Shown here: positions 7,630-57,906 of the stretch, piece after piece
Numbering within the stretch: position 1 is the first letter of the stretch
Layout of the letters: each line of letters opens with the position of its first letter
Origin: Clostridia bacterium
GTDB lineage: Bacteria; Bacillota; Clostridia; UBA1381; UMGS1253
Direction: 5' to 3'
Assembly (NCBI GenBank): GCA_045537695.1
Contig: JAZSQB010000027.1
Span: forward strand, 11,288 to 75,287
DNA: 64,000 nucleotides
The notes under the pieces: model-generated
Told to the model about the DNA's origin: nothing
The model's database searches: none
Seen by the model: the letters and a program-made list of their open reading frames with translations, nothing else
Translations under genes and position numbers: made by a program

Positions 7630-9153
7630 ATGGAAACGGAGGCCTTGGACTTGAAGCAAAAGGAAGTCATTTTTAATTCTTTTCCAAACGATGCAAGCAA
7701 ATCCGGTGGGGAAAACACAGATACCTCTACCACCATTCGCTTTAATGCAATAAAATCAACGGATGCATTTGATGTTGAAAGTGTATATACGCCGCGTACG
7801 CGCGCCGGCGCAGCAACAAGAACAACCAGTCGCAGAAGGACAACAACGCGTGCGCGTCAATCCGGCAAATCCAAAAAGGCAGATTTATCCCGGCTGAAAA
7901 CAATGACGAAAAGGAAGAAAATCACTTTTTTAATTGTCAGCGTTCTTTTGCTCTTCTTTTTAATCAGCAGTTGCAAATTCCTGTTTTTGCTGGGTAATCC
8001 GCTTATTGGCGGCGATATTGACGAAGAAATTAAAAAGGCACAGGACGCAGTTAAGAATGATATGGTATCCGTTCTGCTGATCGGCACAGACGGCGGTGGC
8101 TACAATACAGATACCATTATGCTTGCCGTAATGAACTGCAAAAGCAAGGAAATCAGCTTAATTTCCATTCCGCGTGATACACGCGTGCCGAATCCGTACG
8201 GTGGCAGCGGGTATGCAAAAATCAACTCCGTCTATGCCGCAAAGGGTATGGCAGGTTTAATTTCGCAAGTCAAAGCAGTTACCGGTATGCCGGTCAACTT
8301 CTATGCGATGATTGACTTTGAAGGTTTCAGAGAAGCCATTGACGTTTTGGGCGGTGTTGAATTTAATGTGCCGCAGCGTATGAAGTATTATGACCCTGTG
8401 CAGGATTTAAATATCGATTTATATCCGGGTGTGCAAATCCTCGACGGTGACAAAGCGGAGCAGCTCGTGCGTTGCCGAAACATATACGCGCAGGCTGACC
8501 TTGCCAGAACAGAAGTGCAACGCAATTTTATCAAAGCAACAATTGAACAGCATGCAACTGTCGCAAATCTGACGAAACTCGGCGACCTGTATAAAACCCT
8601 GGAGCCGTATGTAAAAACAAGTGTGACGCTGGGCGATGCACTCAAGTACGGCGCTTCCGTAACCGGCGTAAAATCCGACCGCATTTATTCTTATATGTTG
8701 CCGGGCGCTGCTGGTTCTTACGGTTCAAAGAACATTTCTTATTTCATCTATGATGCAGAAGAAGTCAAGGCACTCGCAAACGAGATTGGGTACGGCGAGG
8801 TAGAGGTTGTAAGACTGCCGGCACCGACAATGTCCAGCGATAAAAAGGCCGAAATTCCTGAAGAAGAGGAAGATAAAAAAGAGGATACGAAAGAAGATAG
8901 CAAGGATAAAGACGATACCTCTAAAACCGATAGTGATGAAAACAAAAAAGAACCTGCCGATGCAGAAGATAAGAAGGATGAAAAGCCGGATACTTCCCCG
9001 AAGGATCCAACTGCAGAAATGCAAAAGCCCCAGTCTCCTGCAGAACATCCGGCAGATACGCAAAAACCAATCCCTGGTCCGAAACCACAACCGCAACCGT
9101 CCCCGACGCCGACGCAGCCGGTGGATCAGACACAAGTGCCGGACGGAATTTAA
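7630..9153 (+). CDS. LCP (LytR-CpsA-Psr) family cell-wall ligase with a low-complexity D/E/K and P/Q tail
   Basis: TM, LLIGTD..NTDTIML, ISIPRDT, KINSVY, DLARTEVQRNFI. Confidence 0.92.
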   Translation: METEALDLKQKEVIFNSFPNDASKSGGENTDTSTTIRFNAIKSTDAFDVESVYTPRTRAGAATRTTSRRRTTTRARQSGKSKKADLSRLKTMTKRKKITFLIVSVLLLFFLISSCKFLFLLGNPLIGGDIDEEIKKAQDAVKNDMVSVLLIGTDGGGYNTDTIMLAVMNCKSKEISLISIPRDTRVPNPYGGSGYAKINSVYAAKGMAGLISQVKAVTGMPVNFYAMIDFEGFREAIDVLGGVEFNVPQRMKYYDPVQDLNIDLYPGVQILDGDKAEQLVRCRNIYAQADLARTEVQRNFIKATIEQHATVANLTKLGDLYKTLEPYVKTSVTLGDALKYGASVTGVKSDRIYSYMLPGAAGSYGSKNISYFIYDAEEVKALANEIGYGEVEVVRLPAPTMSSDKKAEIPEEEEDKKEDTKEDSKDKDDTSKTDSDENKKEPADAEDKKDEKPDTSPKDPTAEMQKPQSPAEHPADTQKPIPGPKPQPQPSPTPTQPVDQTQVPDGI

Positions 9154-9207
9154 ACAAAAAGCATACAAAAAAGACACTTCGTATCAGGTGTACTCTTAAG
9201 GACAGTA

Positions 9208-9237
9208 AAAGGCTCTTGCAATTTTGCGAGAGCCTTT
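9208..9237. terminator. Hairpin at the RAYT 3' end
   Basis: aaaggctcttgcaa-tt-ttgcgagagccttt; a homologous hairpin follows the RAYT remnant at 17830. Confidence 0.65.
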
Positions 9238-9733
9238 AATCATTGTAAAAACAATCTTTTTCCCATCTTAAAACATTTGTATCAATATATTCCCATATTT
9301 TCTGATAATCCTTTTCACCACGGATTATATGGTCATTATAGGAAGATTGCCATACATTTTTACCATATTCTTTATTGCAATATCTCTTTAATAAGGATAT
9401 AAATTTTGATATTTCGTTATTGTAGGGTGCGGCGGTTTGCGACGCACCGTTTTTGTAATCCGTAATATTCAAAATTAAATGAAAATGATTTGGCATTATG
9501 ACATATTTATCTATTTTTATATGAGAGTATTTCTCGTTCATCAGATTAATATATTTATCAAGAATTGCACCACATTCCGATAGTATTATTTGCGGTGTGT
9601 CGAAATCGCCACACCCTACGATTTTTCCAAGCAGTTGTTTTCTATCTTTCACGCAGATTGTCAGGAAATACATCCCCGGTGTTGAATAATCATATCCTTT
9701 TAATCTTGTTGGTTTTCGTTTTGGTAAATCCAT
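9236..9733 (-). CDS. REP-associated tyrosine transposase (RAYT; IS200/IS605 Y1 HUH superfamily)
   Basis: RKPTRLKGYDYS..GMYFLTIC, YVIMPNHFH (HUH), WQSSYNDHIIR, YIDTN (catalytic Tyr). Confidence 0.9.
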   Translation of the reverse strand: MDLPKRKPTRLKGYDYSTPGMYFLTICVKDRKQLLGKIVGCGDFDTPQIILSECGAILDKYINLMNEKYSHIKIDKYVIMPNHFHLILNITDYKNGASQTAAPYNNEISKFISLLKRYCNKEYGKNVWQSSYNDHIIRGEKDYQKIWEYIDTNVLRWEKDCFYND

Positions 9734-9737
9734 ACTA

Positions 9738-9980
9738 TTATTTTATTTCCTGTTCTAAATCGTCAAAATCTTTTGTTGAAAAGAATTCTCCTAATGTGAT
9801 TTCTAATCCATCACAAAATTTCTTGATTGTTCTTATAGAAATATCCCTGCGTGATTTATCCATCATACTATATGCAGTTGACGGTGTTACGCCTGATATG
9901 TTTGCAAGCTCATTTATCCGCATATTTCTTTCAGCACAAAGTTCATTAAACCTTTTTACGATTACATCTTTAACATCCAT
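9738..9980 (-). CDS. XRE-family HTH transcriptional regulator
   Basis: 80 aa; INELANISGVTPSTAYSMM helix-turn-helix; TIKKFCDGLEITLGEFF. Confidence 0.88.
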   Translation of the reverse strand: MDVKDVIVKRFNELCAERNMRINELANISGVTPSTAYSMMDKSRRDISIRTIKKFCDGLEITLGEFFSTKDFDDLEQEIK

Positions 9981-10023
9981 TTTAAAACACCTCGTAAAGA
10001 TATTTTAAAATAATTTACATTTT

Positions 10024-10065
10024 TGCGTATACGCACTTGCGTATTTTATGAAATTATGATATACT
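10024..10065 (+). promoter_or_regulatory. sigmaA-like promoter with an adjacent 12-bp palindrome (candidate XRE operator)
   Basis: TGCGTATACGCA at 10024-10035; TTGCGT-17-TATACT with extended TG. Confidence 0.55.
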
Positions 10066-10114
10066 ATATTTGTGAAAATTATTCAAAAGAATAAAATTTT
10101 GGAGGTTAAACAAA

Positions 10115-10885
10115 ATGAAGAAAAGATTACAAGGATTGATTGCAGGTGTACTGATAGGTGCAATGCTGGCGAGTGGGGTGGTATTTGCAAAACAAATCAG
10201 TGAAACAGCAGAGTTGTTTTATAACAACATTAAGATTTACATTGACGGCGGAGAAATTGTTCCAAAAGATGCAAATGGCAATGTTGTTGAACCATTTACA
10301 ATGAACGGAACAACATATTTGCCTGTTCGTGCTATTTCAAATGCTTTTGGAAAAGATGTTGAATGGGACGGAGCAACGCAGAGCGTTTACATTGGAAAGA
10401 AAGACCAGACAAAACCCGATAATTATTTGCATAGAATTCAGTATAATGATTATCGTGAGGCTGATGACGATAATGATTTTGCTATTATAAATGGTACAAT
10501 TACAGATTACAATAACAATGTATATACTAACGGATTACTATTTTTTGTAGATTGGCACAGAGAATTACAGGATGACGCGGATAAGAGCGATATATTGGTG
10601 GCATATCCTTTAAACAGTAGTTATAACACTCTGAAGGGAAAAATTATCATCCCAAAAGAACGCAACATAAGCACAACCGCTGCGACACGGTGTGAATCCG
10701 CAAGTAATGATGTTTTCTTTTATGGAGATGGCAAATTACTTTATAAGGCCACAGGAGTAACATCATCAATGCCATTTTCATTTGATTTGAATATTAAAGG
10801 CGTGAACCAATTAGTAGTTAAAATTAAATGTGCACAAAATTCTTCAACTCATATAGCCCTTACAGATTTGGCACTTTATAAATAA
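10115..10885 (+). CDS. Secreted protein: copper-amine-oxidase N-terminal (stalk) domain plus NPCBM-like C-terminal domain
   Basis: Signal peptide; EPFTMNGTTYLPVRAISNAFGKDVEWDG; C-terminal FYGDGKLLY...FDLNIKGVNQLVVK. Confidence 0.75.
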   Translation: MKKRLQGLIAGVLIGAMLASGVVFAKQISETAELFYNNIKIYIDGGEIVPKDANGNVVEPFTMNGTTYLPVRAISNAFGKDVEWDGATQSVYIGKKDQTKPDNYLHRIQYNDYREADDDNDFAIINGTITDYNNNVYTNGLLFFVDWHRELQDDADKSDILVAYPLNSSYNTLKGKIIIPKERNISTTAATRCESASNDVFFYGDGKLLYKATGVTSSMPFSFDLNIKGVNQLVVKIKCAQNSSTHIALTDLALYK

Positions 10886-10902
10886 TGTCCGGTACTGTAA
10901 CA

Positions 10903-11022
10903 AGCAGGGAAGATGTATCGCATCTTCCGATAATTTTAGGATAATCCTAAGACCTTATGAAGAGGAACGACACGCAGGTCTTTCCCTACAATGCGGTTCG
11001 TCGGAAACCGCCGAACCCTACG
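10903..11022. repeat. Cluster of three GTAG-type REP hairpins
   Basis: GCAG-GGAAGATG tatcg CATCTTCC; GGAACGAC acgcag GTCTTTCC-CTAC; GGTTCGTCGG aaa CCGCCGAACC-CTAC. Confidence 0.75.
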
Positions 11023-11024
11023 AT

Positions 11025-11058
11025 AAAAGGCTGAACGAAATCAATCGTTCAGCCTTTT
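11025..11058. terminator. Bidirectional terminator-like hairpin
   Basis: aaaaggctgaacga-aatcaa-tcgttcagcctttt. Confidence 0.7.
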
Positions 11059-11118
11059 AAATTACTGTCCTTTAGAGTACTCCTCATAAGAAGTGTCTTT
11101 TTTACTAAGAAAAATCAA

Positions 11119-11400
11119 TTATTCCGCAATCAAATCAGCCTCTTCAGCAAGAGCAGTTTCATACTTTGCCAAAATCGAACTTTCTAAATACTCACGCATC
11201 TGCGCGTTGATCGGATGAGCGATGTCTTTAAACTCGCCGTCTGCCGTCTTTCGACTCGGCATTGCAATGAATAACTTATCCTGTCCCTCGATAATCTTAA
11301 TATCATGAACAACGATAGCGTTATCAAATGTAACGGAAACTACTGCTTTCATTTTACCCTCAGCATTGATTTTTCTTACTCTGATATCCGTTATCTCCAC
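11119..11400 (-). CDS. spoVG: Septation regulator SpoVG
   Basis: [10 protein letters not shown]...[29 protein letters not shown]. Confidence 0.97.
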
Positions 11401-11737
11401 GATATTTCACCTCCCTACGAACAGTCGCTTTTTCGCACACAACTGCTCCATTTTTTCATTTTCACTATCTCATAATTTCTAATAAATGTCAATAGCTTTT
11501 TAACCAATTCCTTGCAAAATGTAACAGAATTTTCGTTTTAATTGTAAAAACATTGTGCAAATCTAATAGTTCACAATTTCATTTTTTGTAGCTTTAGCAC
11601 AAAAACCATTTTTTCACTGTATCTATACTATGCGCAATAAAAAATTTTTCTTGCATTTTTCTTTGAAAAGTGTTTTAATTTATCTTATGTTGTTATATAA
11701 TGATATCTAGGAATATAAATAGGGAGTTTATCCGAAC

Positions 11738-13114
11738 ATGAACGATTTTTATATCTCGTCTCTCAGCAAAAATGCAAAAATACATTTTATTGGCATTGGC
11801 GGCATCAGTATGAGCGGTCTTGCGCATATTTGTATTAAGGAAGGTTTTACAGTGTCCGGCTCGGACACCGGCACTTCCCCCATTCTGAACCGTCTCTCCG
11901 ATGCAGGTGCAACCATCTATCGCGGTCACGATGCAAAAAACTGTATCGGCGCAGAGCTGGTTGTCTATACAGCGGCGATTCAGGAGGATAATCCGGAGCT
12001 TGTATATGCGCGCGAAAATGGTATACAAAACATCGAACGGTCGATATTTTTAGGTGCGGTAATGCGCAGCTACAGCGATTGCGTATGTATCGCCGGTACG
12101 CACGGCAAAACCACCACAACCTCCATGATGTCGCACGTACTTTTGGCACACGACTGTGACCCGACGATTTTAATTGGCGGCGAGCTCGATGCCATCGGCG
12201 GCAATTATCGTTTGGGTAAAACCGGTTACTTTTTAACGGAAGCTTGTGAATACCATAGCTCCTTTTTAGAGTTTTTTCCGAAATACGCACTCATTACCAA
12301 TGTAGATGCAGACCATTTAGACTACTTTAAAGACTTAAATCACATCAAAGAAACCTTTACAGCCTATGCAAAGCTCCCTGGCAAGGATGGTTTCGTGATT
12401 GTCTGCGGCGACGATGAAAACGCAATGGAATGTGTGCAAACCACAGACGCAACCATCATCACATACGGTCTGGATGCCAAAAACGACATACACCCGACCG
12501 GGGTATATACAAAAGAACACCATATGTGCTTTGAACTGGAAACAGCCGGCGAAACGCGCAAGGTACACCTGCAGGTGGCAGGTATGCACAATCTTTACAA
12601 TGCGCTCGCGTGTTTTGCCATCGGCAAAGCGATGGGCATAGATGCCGATACCGTGCAGCGCGGCGTGGAAAGCTTTACCATGGTGCACCGCCGTTTTGAA
12701 AGAAAAGGCGAGCTAAACGGTGCTTGCATTGTAGACGATTATGCCCACCATCCAACGGAAATCATGTGCACACTGCAGGCGGCAAAATCTATCGCCAATG
12801 GGCGCGTTATTGTTGCATTCCAGCCGCATACGTACACCAGAACGTACACCTTGCTTGAAGAGTTTGCAAATGCGTTTAACGATGCGGACGAAGTGCTCGT
12901 ATTTGACATTTATGCGGCACGCGAAAAGGATACCGGTCTGATTCACGCGCGTGACCTAGCTAAAAAGCTAAAGCAAAACGGTGTAAATGCAAAATATATC
13001 GAAAACTTTGATGCGGCCGAGACGAATTTAAGACACACCTTACAGCCCGGGGATATATTACTCACAATGGGTGCCGGCAACATATTTCAGGTCGGCGAAT
13101 ATTTATTAAAATAA
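11738..13114 (+). CDS. murC: UDP-N-acetylmuramate--L-alanine ligase
   Basis: IHFIGIGGISMSGLA, GTHGKTTTT, DDYAHHPTE, FQPHTYTRT. Confidence 0.96.
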   Translation: MNDFYISSLSKNAKIHFIGIGGISMSGLAHICIKEGFTVSGSDTGTSPILNRLSDAGATIYRGHDAKNCIGAELVVYTAAIQEDNPELVYARENGIQNIERSIFLGAVMRSYSDCVCIAGTHGKTTTTSMMSHVLLAHDCDPTILIGGELDAIGGNYRLGKTGYFLTEACEYHSSFLEFFPKYALITNVDADHLDYFKDLNHIKETFTAYAKLPGKDGFVIVCGDDENAMECVQTTDATIITYGLDAKNDIHPTGVYTKEHHMCFELETAGETRKVHLQVAGMHNLYNALACFAIGKAMGIDADTVQRGVESFTMVHRRFERKGELNGACIVDDYAHHPTEIMCTLQAAKSIANGRVIVAFQPHTYTRTYTLLEEFANAFNDADEVLVFDIYAAREKDTGLIHARDLAKKLKQNGVNAKYIENFDAAETNLRHTLQPGDILLTMGAGNIFQVGEYLLK

Positions 13115-17829: not shown

Positions 17830-17997
17830 AAGGCTCTCGCTACTGCGAGAGCCTTACATCATTATAAATACAATTCTTTTCCCATCCCATTACATCCATA
17901 TCTATATATTCCCATATTTTCCGACAACCCGCTTTACCAAGAATAACGTGGTCATGCGCGCCTGCCATATGTTTTCACCATATGCCTTGTTACAAAG
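17830..17997 (-). pseudogene. Frameshifted C-terminal remnant of a second RAYT gene with its 3' hairpin
   Basis: - strand reads CNKAYGENIWQA / HDHVILGKAGCRKIWEYIDMDVMGWEKNCIYND, versus CNKEYGKNVWQSSYNDHIIRGEKDYQKIWEYIDTNVLRWEKDCFYND in the intact RAYT. Followed by aaggctctcgc-tact-gcgagagcctt. Confidence 0.85.
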
Positions 17998-42271: not shown

Positions 42272-42342
42272 GGCAGGAGCAAGCCCCTGCCCTACAAGCT
42301 TAATTTAAATTATGTGTGTAGGGCAAGGCGATTCGGCGCGCC
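42272..42342. repeat. REPIN-like GTAG REP pair
   Basis: ggcaggagcaagcccctgccctacaagc is 27/28 identical to 26936-26963; followed by a degenerate gtagggc... arm. Confidence 0.8.
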
Positions 42343-57597: not shown

Positions 57598-57906
57598 AAA
57601 AAGGACGGGAAGGGCGATTGTTCTTAAGGATACAACGGTTTTAGCCGCTAATTTACCGAAAATAGTTTACAAAAAATCCGCATTATACGCGAGTATGATG
57701 CGGATTTTTATGTTCCTCTTTCCGACAAAATTCCTCGTCTAAAACTGCCGCAGGCACCTTAAAAGGGAATAGCTTGGATAAAGAGCAAGGCAGAAACGAC
57801 CGAAATCCGCGTGGATGTCGGTCGTTTTTAACACAGCTATTTGCCAAAATATTGCTTTTTAAGGCGTTTTATCCTTAAGAACACTCGCCCAAACCGTCCT
57901 TTTTTA
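57598..57906. repeat. Nested palindromic element: ~35-bp outer inverted repeat enclosing two hairpin units
   Basis: aaaaaggacgg-gaa-gggcgattgttcttaaggata ... tatccttaagaacactcgccc-aaa-ccgtcctttttt. Inside: aaaaatccgcattatac-gcga-gtatgatgcggattttt and a TTAAAAG...CTTTTTAA unit (57759-57862). Confidence 0.8.

Follow-up and report, generated by a model that had tools for sequence, protein, structure and literature searches.

A family of elements with inverted ends and a RAYT gene at terminator hairpins of Clostridia

The convergent LCP (LytR-CpsA-Psr) and spoVG genes of a 64,000-nucleotide stretch of Clostridia bacterium contig JAZSQB010000027.1 (the window, by which we mean the whole 64-kb stretch) are separated by a 1,907-bp element, positions 9182-11088, which carries genes for a REP-associated tyrosine transposase (RAYT; REP, repetitive extragenic palindrome), a small XRE-type regulator and a secreted protein. 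The best overall explanation of what we observed, with a probability that we put at about 0.62, is a family of RAYT-moved transposons inserting at the tips of terminator hairpins. What stands almost beyond doubt is that the family exists and has defined ends, that relatives have empty sites, that many copies lie at unrelated terminators and that some derivatives are non-autonomous.

The split terminator and its empty sites

The element is bracketed by an inverted repeat (9167-9208 and 11062-11103) with arms of 42 nt, complementary at 38 of 42 positions (90%, four mismatches) and 1853 nt apart. A scan of the window for inverted pairs of ≥26 nt within 6 kb yielded nine pairs; this one was the sole long-range pair of ≥30 nt with ≥80% complementarity, while the chance expectation for an inverted pair of such length and complementarity is ∼2e-10. 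The segment between the arms has a GC content of 0.30-0.36, as compared with 0.457 for the genome, and on the inward side of each arm there is a separate stable hairpin. In these respects the first-pass annotation of this DNA, which had described 42-bp arms with four mismatches around an AT-rich 1.9-kb segment and a hairpin inward of each arm, was borne out. Another inverted repeat of the window, at 57598-57904, has 68-nt arms that are 74% complementary and 171 nt apart.

We searched 40 relatives with window positions 8000-12300. In five of five same-genus genomes the LCP and spoVG flanks were adjacent, with nothing cassette-like between them, and at the junction each of the five had an intact hairpin (A-tract, stem, loop, stem, T-tract); in one of them (G001) the empty-site hairpin is a perfect palindrome. 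The homology of the cassette with copies located elsewhere starts at ∼9182 and ends at ∼11088. Because the outer part of each arm has the make-up of half an empty-site hairpin and this homology spans 9182-11088, the arms are composite: 15 nt on the outside of each are one half of the host terminator, and 27 nt on the inside are one of the two terminal inverted repeats (TIRs) that end the element.

The earlier proposal that a RAYT cassette with surface-protein cargo had landed in the loop of a palindrome was thus correct, the palindrome being a bidirectional terminator. It had also been proposed that the joined arms would form a long terminator; since only the outer 15 nt per arm derive from a terminator, the full 42-nt arms would not do so. 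Similarly, the view of the arms as ends of a MITE-like unit (MITE, a miniature transposable element with inverted repeats) is right for the inner 27 nt, which bound a mobile unit with true MITE derivatives, and wrong for the outer 15 nt, which belong to the host.

A same-species empty site was sought in two exact-flank scans of metagenome contigs, with 0 and 0 matches. Sites orthologous to those of the copies in genomes G120 and G026 were not found among 20 same-genus genomes, as the left and right flanks were on different contigs there. The host locus was absent from public read runs, the best word share among the 24 runs listed being 0.26. Contigs of four read runs included many partial contigs from other organisms over the cassette, with the flanks hardly covered. 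One contig (in run X20) joins position 9210 to 11024, as a MITE-like form would; it has just 25 letters on one side and is not relied on.

Ends, insertion sites and derivatives of the family

A RAYT scan with one genome per species gave 162 relatives, of which the best 80 loci were kept, all in metagenome-assembled genomes (MAGs) of Clostridia, many labelled by their records as ruminant or other animal gut. Pieces of the cassette were seen at other loci, in other genera and families, with 73-91% DNA identity, which equals or surpasses the 73-79% found for the housekeeping flanks inside the genus. With an ends profile, at least one TIR end was detected at 43 of the 80 loci; this number is a lower bound, since one locus without a profile match (L042) has a diverged TIR by eye. 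The surroundings of the 37 RAYT loci where no TIR was detected were also searched de novo for inverted ends of another kind, which gave short, low-scoring matches only. From the RAYT loci and loci added from relatives, with one duplicate locus dropped, we obtained 36 distinct complete elements with both ends, 82 bp to 3,061 bp in length, in gut and rumen Clostridia. In the window's own genome the 27-mer end (≤7 substitutions) was found nowhere besides the two arms. The typical layout of an element is TIR, hairpin, RAYT, small helix-turn-helix (HTH) gene, divergent promoter region, passenger gene, REPs, hairpin and TIR.

Of 72 termini, 62 start with TA, and no direct repeat lies beyond the termini. 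Over 12 nt on the outer side of both ends, the 36 elements have only complementarity and A/T tracts in common, not sequence. For the 35 elements with flanks uncut by a contig end, 22+22 nt of the two flanks were rejoined in silico and folded, with 1,190 mismatched pairs of left and right flanks as a control. The median folding energy was -11.0 kcal/mol for rejoined flanks versus -3.1 kcal/mol for mismatched pairs; 25 of the 35 elements fell below the 5th percentile of the control. A run of ≥4 A on the left together with a run of ≥4 T on the right was present in 32 of 35, and in most of the 35 rejoined flanks the predicted loop spans the insertion point. The stem sequences of the flanking hairpins are all different; therefore, it is shape, not sequence, that the targets have in common.

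Several elements are reduced. Two (689 and 681 bp) have the RAYT as their only gene, and an 82-bp MITE (L121), composed of TIR, hairpin and TIR, sits in a split terminator. Two RAYT-deleted copies of 491 bp (L116 and L117), 96% alike, occupy different sites in one genome (G120). The second of them (G120:C21) carries 16 nt of the left flank of the first (G120:C7), i.e. its half-terminator, and has unpaired flanks; these letters may come from imprecise or one-ended mobilization. A gene-less MITE of ∼225 bp (L137, L138, L140 and L141; G120:C8, C27, C13 and C27, respectively) is present in at least four copies, which are 98-99.5% alike in pairwise BLAST. Its left TIR is that of the other elements, its right TIR has diverged, and its interior is rich in hairpins and unrelated; comparison of this MITE with Rfam gave nothing near any gathering score. 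Two of its copies (L138 and L141) lie in visibly split terminators, a third (L140) has a more complex right flank and the fourth (L137) is cut by a contig end. All these MITEs and RAYT-deleted copies, as well as the 3.1-kb element L123 described below, are TIR-bounded units without a transposase gene, while the RAYT of the window copy is intact.

In two more loci (L125 and L019) the XRE is 95-97% identical to the window's protein and the RAYT is only ∼50% identical; it follows from this mismatch that modules have been exchanged between elements. Units of many sizes bounded by these ends have multiplied and spread.

The RAYT and other possible movers

The transposase that moves the element is, we infer, probably the RAYT. 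It is present, whole or partial, in 34 of the 36 elements (full-length in 27) and is the only enzyme common to them; RAYT-only elements exist as well. Among genomes with a TIR match (≤2 mismatches) 23 of 30 have a RAYT, versus 38 of 121 others, in a hand cross-tabulation of genomes that are related, not independent. Judging from dN/dS of 0.06-0.12 against 11 close homologues, the gene is under purifying selection.

The 165-aa protein has Y1_Tnp as its sole Pfam match (23.1 bits; cut-off 23) and scores 63.1 bits with NCBIfam REP_Tyr_transpos, below the cut-off of 80. Its best solved relative is E. coli TnpAREP, 4ER8 (E 0.0011), in which HMH (59-61) and Tyr115, by residue numbers counted off the printed alignment, align with H83-F84-H85 and Tyr149 of the RAYT.

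The inner side of the element's ends points in the same direction. The subterminal hairpin preceded by GTAA is an analogue of the GTAG-footed REP: in a truncated copy (L118) the outer TIR meets a bona fide GTAG REP exactly at the GTAA position of the TIR. The left subterminal hairpin is conserved in related copies, and the right one is kept in other copies and in deletion derivatives. Three types of RAYT-side hairpin, compared by eye with RAYT clades, showed no correspondence; as the hairpin types do not track the clades, we make no argument from co-evolution.

A number of observations weigh against the reading of the family as RAYT-moved and hairpin-targeting. No transposition event, circle junction or same-species pair of empty and filled sites was seen, and the empty sites come from other species, with flanks only 73-79% identical. 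At 37 of the 80 RAYT loci there is no detectable TIR, in seven of the 30 TIR-bearing genomes no RAYT was seen, and ten of the 35 elements failed the flank-hairpin test (some of the ten, e.g. L117, look rearranged). RAYT-free elements have multiplied. One element of 3.1 kb (L123; G093:C11:3600-6660) has the same ends without a RAYT; it encodes an HTH_3 regulator together with an exporter of bacteriocin type (718 aa; C39 peptidase and ABC transporter). Canonical IS200-type TnpA genes are present in three of five element-rich genomes, with Y1_Tnp E-values of 5e-41 to 4e-36 in G120 and G102 and 5e-15 in G056.

The comparison with IS200/IS605 insertion sequences such as IS608 and ISDra2 adds to these points. 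Alike are the small transposase of Y1/HUH type and the strong hairpins in subterminal position at either end, and in neither case is a target duplication of >2 bp evident. However, IS200/IS605 elements lack TIRs, are asymmetric in their left and right ends and go in 3′ of a fixed sequence of 4-5 nt, whereas the ends of the window's family are symmetric and its flanks are alike in shape, not in sequence.

Ends that are symmetric over 27 bp and start with TA are typical of DDE elements such as IS630/mariner. Elements of the IS630/Tc1-mariner type duplicate a target TA, and the TA at the termini of the present family may be such a duplication or part of the element's ends. The TIR-bounded unit might be a mobile insertion cassette, and an unlinked enzyme that recognizes the 27-bp TA-ended repeats, e.g. 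of DDE type, might move it in trans, with the RAYT, the XRE and the lectin as passengers. The multiplied RAYT-less elements (L121, L123 and the 225-bp MITE in its four or more copies) and the RAYT loci without TIRs would fit this explanation, and hairpin-targeting DDE elements, IS1272/TnSha1, are known (PMC4923244, as far as its available parts go). We nevertheless consider it unlikely, as no non-RAYT transposase lies within any of the 36 elements and two of them are nothing other than a RAYT. In the five element-rich genomes, the DDE domains of IS630 type (DDE_3), IS1182 type (DDE_Tnp_1_6) and IS4/IS5 type (DDE_Tnp_1) were found in 0/5 each and rve in 3/5, as opposed to Y1_Tnp in 5/5, and DDE_3 was found neither in the element nor in the window's genome; this search covered the four named DDE families in incomplete MAGs (completeness 73-97%), where repeats are often unassembled. 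Besides, the inner end of the unit is the GTAA-footed hairpin, interchangeable with a GTAG REP, the type of site that RAYTs bind.

Palindromes are hot spots of breakage and template switching. The segment might then have entered by palindrome-stimulated illegitimate recombination, template switching or cassette exchange, its inverted ends being remnants; the shuffling of modules (XRE 97% identical with RAYT ∼50% identical, L125 and L019) and the copy bearing 16 nt of another copy's flank could be read in this way. We find this very improbable. More than 30 unrelated terminators hold, always at the tip of the hairpin, units of 82 bp to 3.1 kb with the same 27-bp ends, and near-identical short copies are located at different sites of one genome; hence end-specific, repeated mobilization is required. 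Hardly any credence is left for an old resident segment with the 42-bp arms, A- and T-tracts included, as a functional long terminator or as switch sites of an invertible segment, for, even if long inverted repeats can support inversion, the same-genus sites, empty in 5/5, contradict old residence, the composition looks foreign, the inner 27 nt recur as element ends elsewhere and the element encodes no invertase or recombinase.

Returning to the RAYT as the mover, one could picture the process as follows. On single-stranded DNA, the two ends of the element would pair on either strand, and the host terminator would fold with its loop exposed. Bound to the hairpins with a GTAA foot, the Y1 enzyme would cleave each end at its outer TA and join the ends into a circle, the junction forming the tip of one long palindrome. 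Run backwards into another hairpin's loop, this reaction would yield a nested palindrome such as that of the window, where the element lies at the very tip of the LCP/spoVG bidirectional terminator, the half-stems with their A- and T-tracts lengthening the 27-bp ends to 42-bp arms. It is probable, to the same degree as the RAYT being the transposase and jointly with it, that the enzyme acts on folded single strands and chooses its target by hairpin shape rather than by sequence. The element's subterminal hairpins probably replace the split terminator, stopping transcription from both neighbours and from the element's own genes. We would offer about even odds for the fullest form of this proposal, namely that a RAYT, of an enzyme class widely seen as domesticated, immobile ‘REP keepers’, is the working transposase of an autonomous cargo element and its MITEs, recognizing terminator hairpins on single-stranded DNA by their shape and inserting the long-palindrome element into their loops.

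Insertion at the tip harms no gene, and the element supplies hairpins of its own; this would explain spread through very small, gene-dense genomes.

Comparison with known systems

In-frame REPs within the tnpAREP gene, generally between HUH and Tyr, are unique to TnpAREP subclass 2.4, according to the parts of Quentin et al. (2018, PMC6006769) available to us; the subclass is said there to match RAYT Group 4 of Bertels 2017 and to be abundant in Cyanobacteria and Bacteroidetes. We call the window's RAYT subclass 2.4-like, an assignment made by the in-frame REP trait and not by the authors' hidden Markov model profiles. The likeness extends, as far as those parts describe the subclass, to a Y1/HUH core, GTAG-footed REPs beside the gene, in-frame REPs and a patchy distribution suggesting horizontal transfer. 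The difference is that the same parts of PMC6006769 give no boundaries, TIRs, cargo, target site or MITEs, nor the word ‘terminator’.

RAYT-like genes located between TIRs, which take the place of REPs or occur along with them, with some TIRs forming small repeat families, were described as TIRtrons or TIRYTs (Di Nocera, De Gregorio & Rocco 2013, PMC3733652, in its available parts). These are mostly of subclass 2.1, with C-terminal HTH domains and a GGGGWSAS motif in the TIR (PMC3733652 and PMC6006769, same limits). The portions seen of PMC3733652 report no cargo, empty sites or target preference (‘terminator’ and ‘target site’, 0 occurrences). The window's TIR has no GGGG run, and the protein of 165 aa has no Pfam match beyond Y1_Tnp.

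REPINs, reportedly introduced by Bertels and Rainey in 2011, are said to consist of two inverted hairpin units forming one long palindrome and are thought to be moved by a RAYT. The 82-bp MITE looks REPIN-like; however, REPINs lie outside the RAYT gene, which is regarded as vertically inherited and immobile, whereas here inverted units bracket the RAYT together with cargo, and it is the unit as a whole that moves from genome to genome. Mobile insertion cassettes, such as Bacillus cereus MIC231, are TIR-bounded, passenger-bearing units that share TIRs with a DDE insertion sequence and are moved in trans. The present family is like them, and like MITEs, in having TIR-bounded, passenger-carrying units and transposase-less derivatives; unlike them, it has no DDE partner that we could find, and its full-size element bears a Y1 gene.

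The IS1182-family elements IS1272/TnSha1 insert into hairpins that frequently are confirmed terminators and that have no consensus in primary sequence (Furi et al. 2016, PMC4923244, in the excerpts available). They differ, by the same excerpts, in using a DDE enzyme and in inserting into the stem with partial deletion of the target, whereas here insertion is at the tip and both half-stems are kept. The IS1182-type domain (DDE_Tnp_1_6) was not found in the five element-rich genomes.

Two background statements of the first-pass annotation proved too strong. Y1/HUH transposases had been said to do without TIRs, yet the RAYT-like TIRtrons/TIRYTs are in print (PMC3733652, as above). The picture of RAYTs as immobile, single-copy genes was drawn for other RAYT groups, described as housekeeping-like in copy number and inheritance in the available parts of Bertels et al. 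(2017, PMC5581495). In-frame-REP RAYTs, RAYT-like genes between TIRs and terminator-hairpin-targeting DDE elements are thus already in print, to the extent that these sources were available. In the literature searched, which took in few subscription journals and some papers only in part, there was no RAYT element with defined ends and empty sites, exchangeable cargo, MITEs and terminator-tip insertion.

Since 2010-2011 it has been an open question how RAYTs and their REPs or REPINs move, as the RAYT genes investigated up to now seem immobile. The present family makes RAYT movement testable: it is a compact natural element whose ends are defined, for which there are empty sites, and which has minimal forms with just the RAYT as well as derivatives lacking a transposase. 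If the proposed explanation is true, the family would connect IS200/IS605 transposons with RAYT/REPIN systems as a living link, with circle junction and target being the same kind of structure, and would serve as a vehicle spreading variable glycan-binding surface proteins among gut Clostridia.

Passengers and features of the window copy

A relative of the window's secreted protein is the commonest passenger, present in 21 of the 36 elements; small zinc-ribbon/DUF4190 membrane proteins are among the others. We aligned the window's gene (10115-10885) with five homologues (alignment A1, six related copies). The first 112 residues, comprising the signal peptide and Cu_amine_oxidN1, are near-invariant (dN 0.013-0.045, dS 0.23-0.99), and the C-terminal 145 residues have dN of 0.20-0.56, so that the C-terminal domain changes ∼20 times faster than the N-terminal part at the protein level. 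In a structural model the C-terminal domain has pLDDT of 71-92, the N-terminal 100 residues being poorly modelled. The top Foldseek matches of the C-terminal domain are CBM51 modules from enzymes of Clostridium perfringens and Streptococcus (E 1.4e-6; TM on the target, 0.68-0.70), in agreement with the weak Pfam NPCBM match. The predicted fold thus suggests a CBM51-like sugar-binding (lectin) domain. With its commonest passenger combining an invariant N-terminus and a fast-changing CBM51-like lectin, the element may move glycan-binding functions between gut and rumen bacteria.

The XRE gene, taken to encode a repressor and to form an operon with the RAYT gene, is found in most full-size copies, in at least two divergent types. 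The perfect palindrome of the divergent promoter region, near which there are promoter-like sites on both strands, is a candidate operator for the XRE protein (Table 1).

Table 1. Features of the window, and IS200-type Y1 genes of other genomes (genome:contig:positions)
Feature	Position	Strand	Remarks
LCP (LytR-CpsA-Psr) host gene, low-complexity tail	7630..9153	+	Pfam LytR_cpsA_psr E 4.6e-36; left flank
Left half of split bidirectional terminator (A-tract and stem, AAAAAAGACACTTCG)	9167..9181	.	complementary to 11089-11103
Left TIR (TIR-L), starts TA	9182..9208	+	homology of other copies begins here; matches ends profile
Left subterminal hairpin AAAGGCT...AGCCTTT	9208..9237	.	GTAA before it; overlaps RAYT stop codon; DNA fold -14.4 kcal/mol, z -4.1
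RAYT-like Y1/HUH tyrosine transposase, 165 aa	9236..9733	-	HUH = H83-F84-H85, Tyr149; Pfam Y1_Tnp
In-frame REP hairpin	9417..9449	-	between HUH and Tyr codons; followed by CCCTAC on coding strand
Second in-frame REP, inverted to the first, upstream of HUH	9594..9622	+	GTAGGG and hairpin; direct repeat D2 with 11004-11024
XRE/Cro-type HTH regulator, 80 aa	9738..9980	-	Pfam HTH_26 E 5.3e-10; directly upstream of RAYT gene
Perfect 12-bp palindrome TGCGTATACGCA and further half-site	10024..10035	.	divergent promoter region
Secreted cargo protein: signal peptide, Cu_amine_oxidN1, variable CBM51-like beta-sandwich (predicted)	10115..10885	+	Cu_amine_oxidN1 E 2.3e-10; NPCBM weak
Plain terminator-like hairpin	10908-10928		not a REP
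Two tandem GTAGGG-footed REPs near right end	10980..11026	-	repeat search and folding
Right subterminal hairpin AAAAGGCTGAACGA...TCGTTCAGCCTTTT	11024..11059	.	perfect 15-bp stem; DNA fold -17.8 kcal/mol, z -5.8
Right TIR (TIR-R), ends TA	11062..11088	-	inverted pair of TIR-L; ends profile
Right half of split terminator (stem and T-tract, AGAAGTGTCTTTTTT)	11089..11103	.	pairs with 9167-9181
spoVG host gene	11119..11400	-	Pfam SpoVG E 1.7e-37; right flank, convergent with LCP gene
Canonical IS200-type Y1 genes	G120:C29:16842-17198, G120:C27:58645-59001, G102:C99:5117-5455, G056:C39:8-313		Pfam Y1_Tnp

The first-pass annotation had counted three REP hairpins between the arms; the GTAGGG-footed ones at ∼10980-11026 are indeed REPs, and the hairpin at 10908-10928 is of the plain terminator-like kind. 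Two more REPs are in frame within the RAYT gene. The first, 9417-9449, has the HUH codons (9479-9487) on one side and the Tyr codon (9287-9289) on the other; it folds and is 88% complementary to the REP at 10994-11026, with compensated changes in the stem. The fold of the second, 9594-9622, is weak (z -1.5). An alignment of 75 homologues shows both retained, as variable ‘VG......P’ and ‘G......P’ segments.

The stem of the tandem REPs at 10980-11026 recurs at two other places of the genome (C54 and C43). By a loose criterion, 51 of 159 genomic GTAGGG sites are followed by a hairpin; GTAGGG-hairpins of several stem types are scattered over the 1.65-Mb genome (e.g. window 42285-42328). Several of the genomic REP stems, when translated, resemble the in-frame REP segments of other RAYT clades (e.g. 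VGDDAHIVP). The genome also has three decayed RAYT remnants, at window 17830-17995 (G000:C52:29117-29282), G000:C66:32843-33350 and G000:C27:958-1152, apparently old copies, now dead, of related elements; that of the window has kept its subterminal hairpin next to a degenerate TIR.

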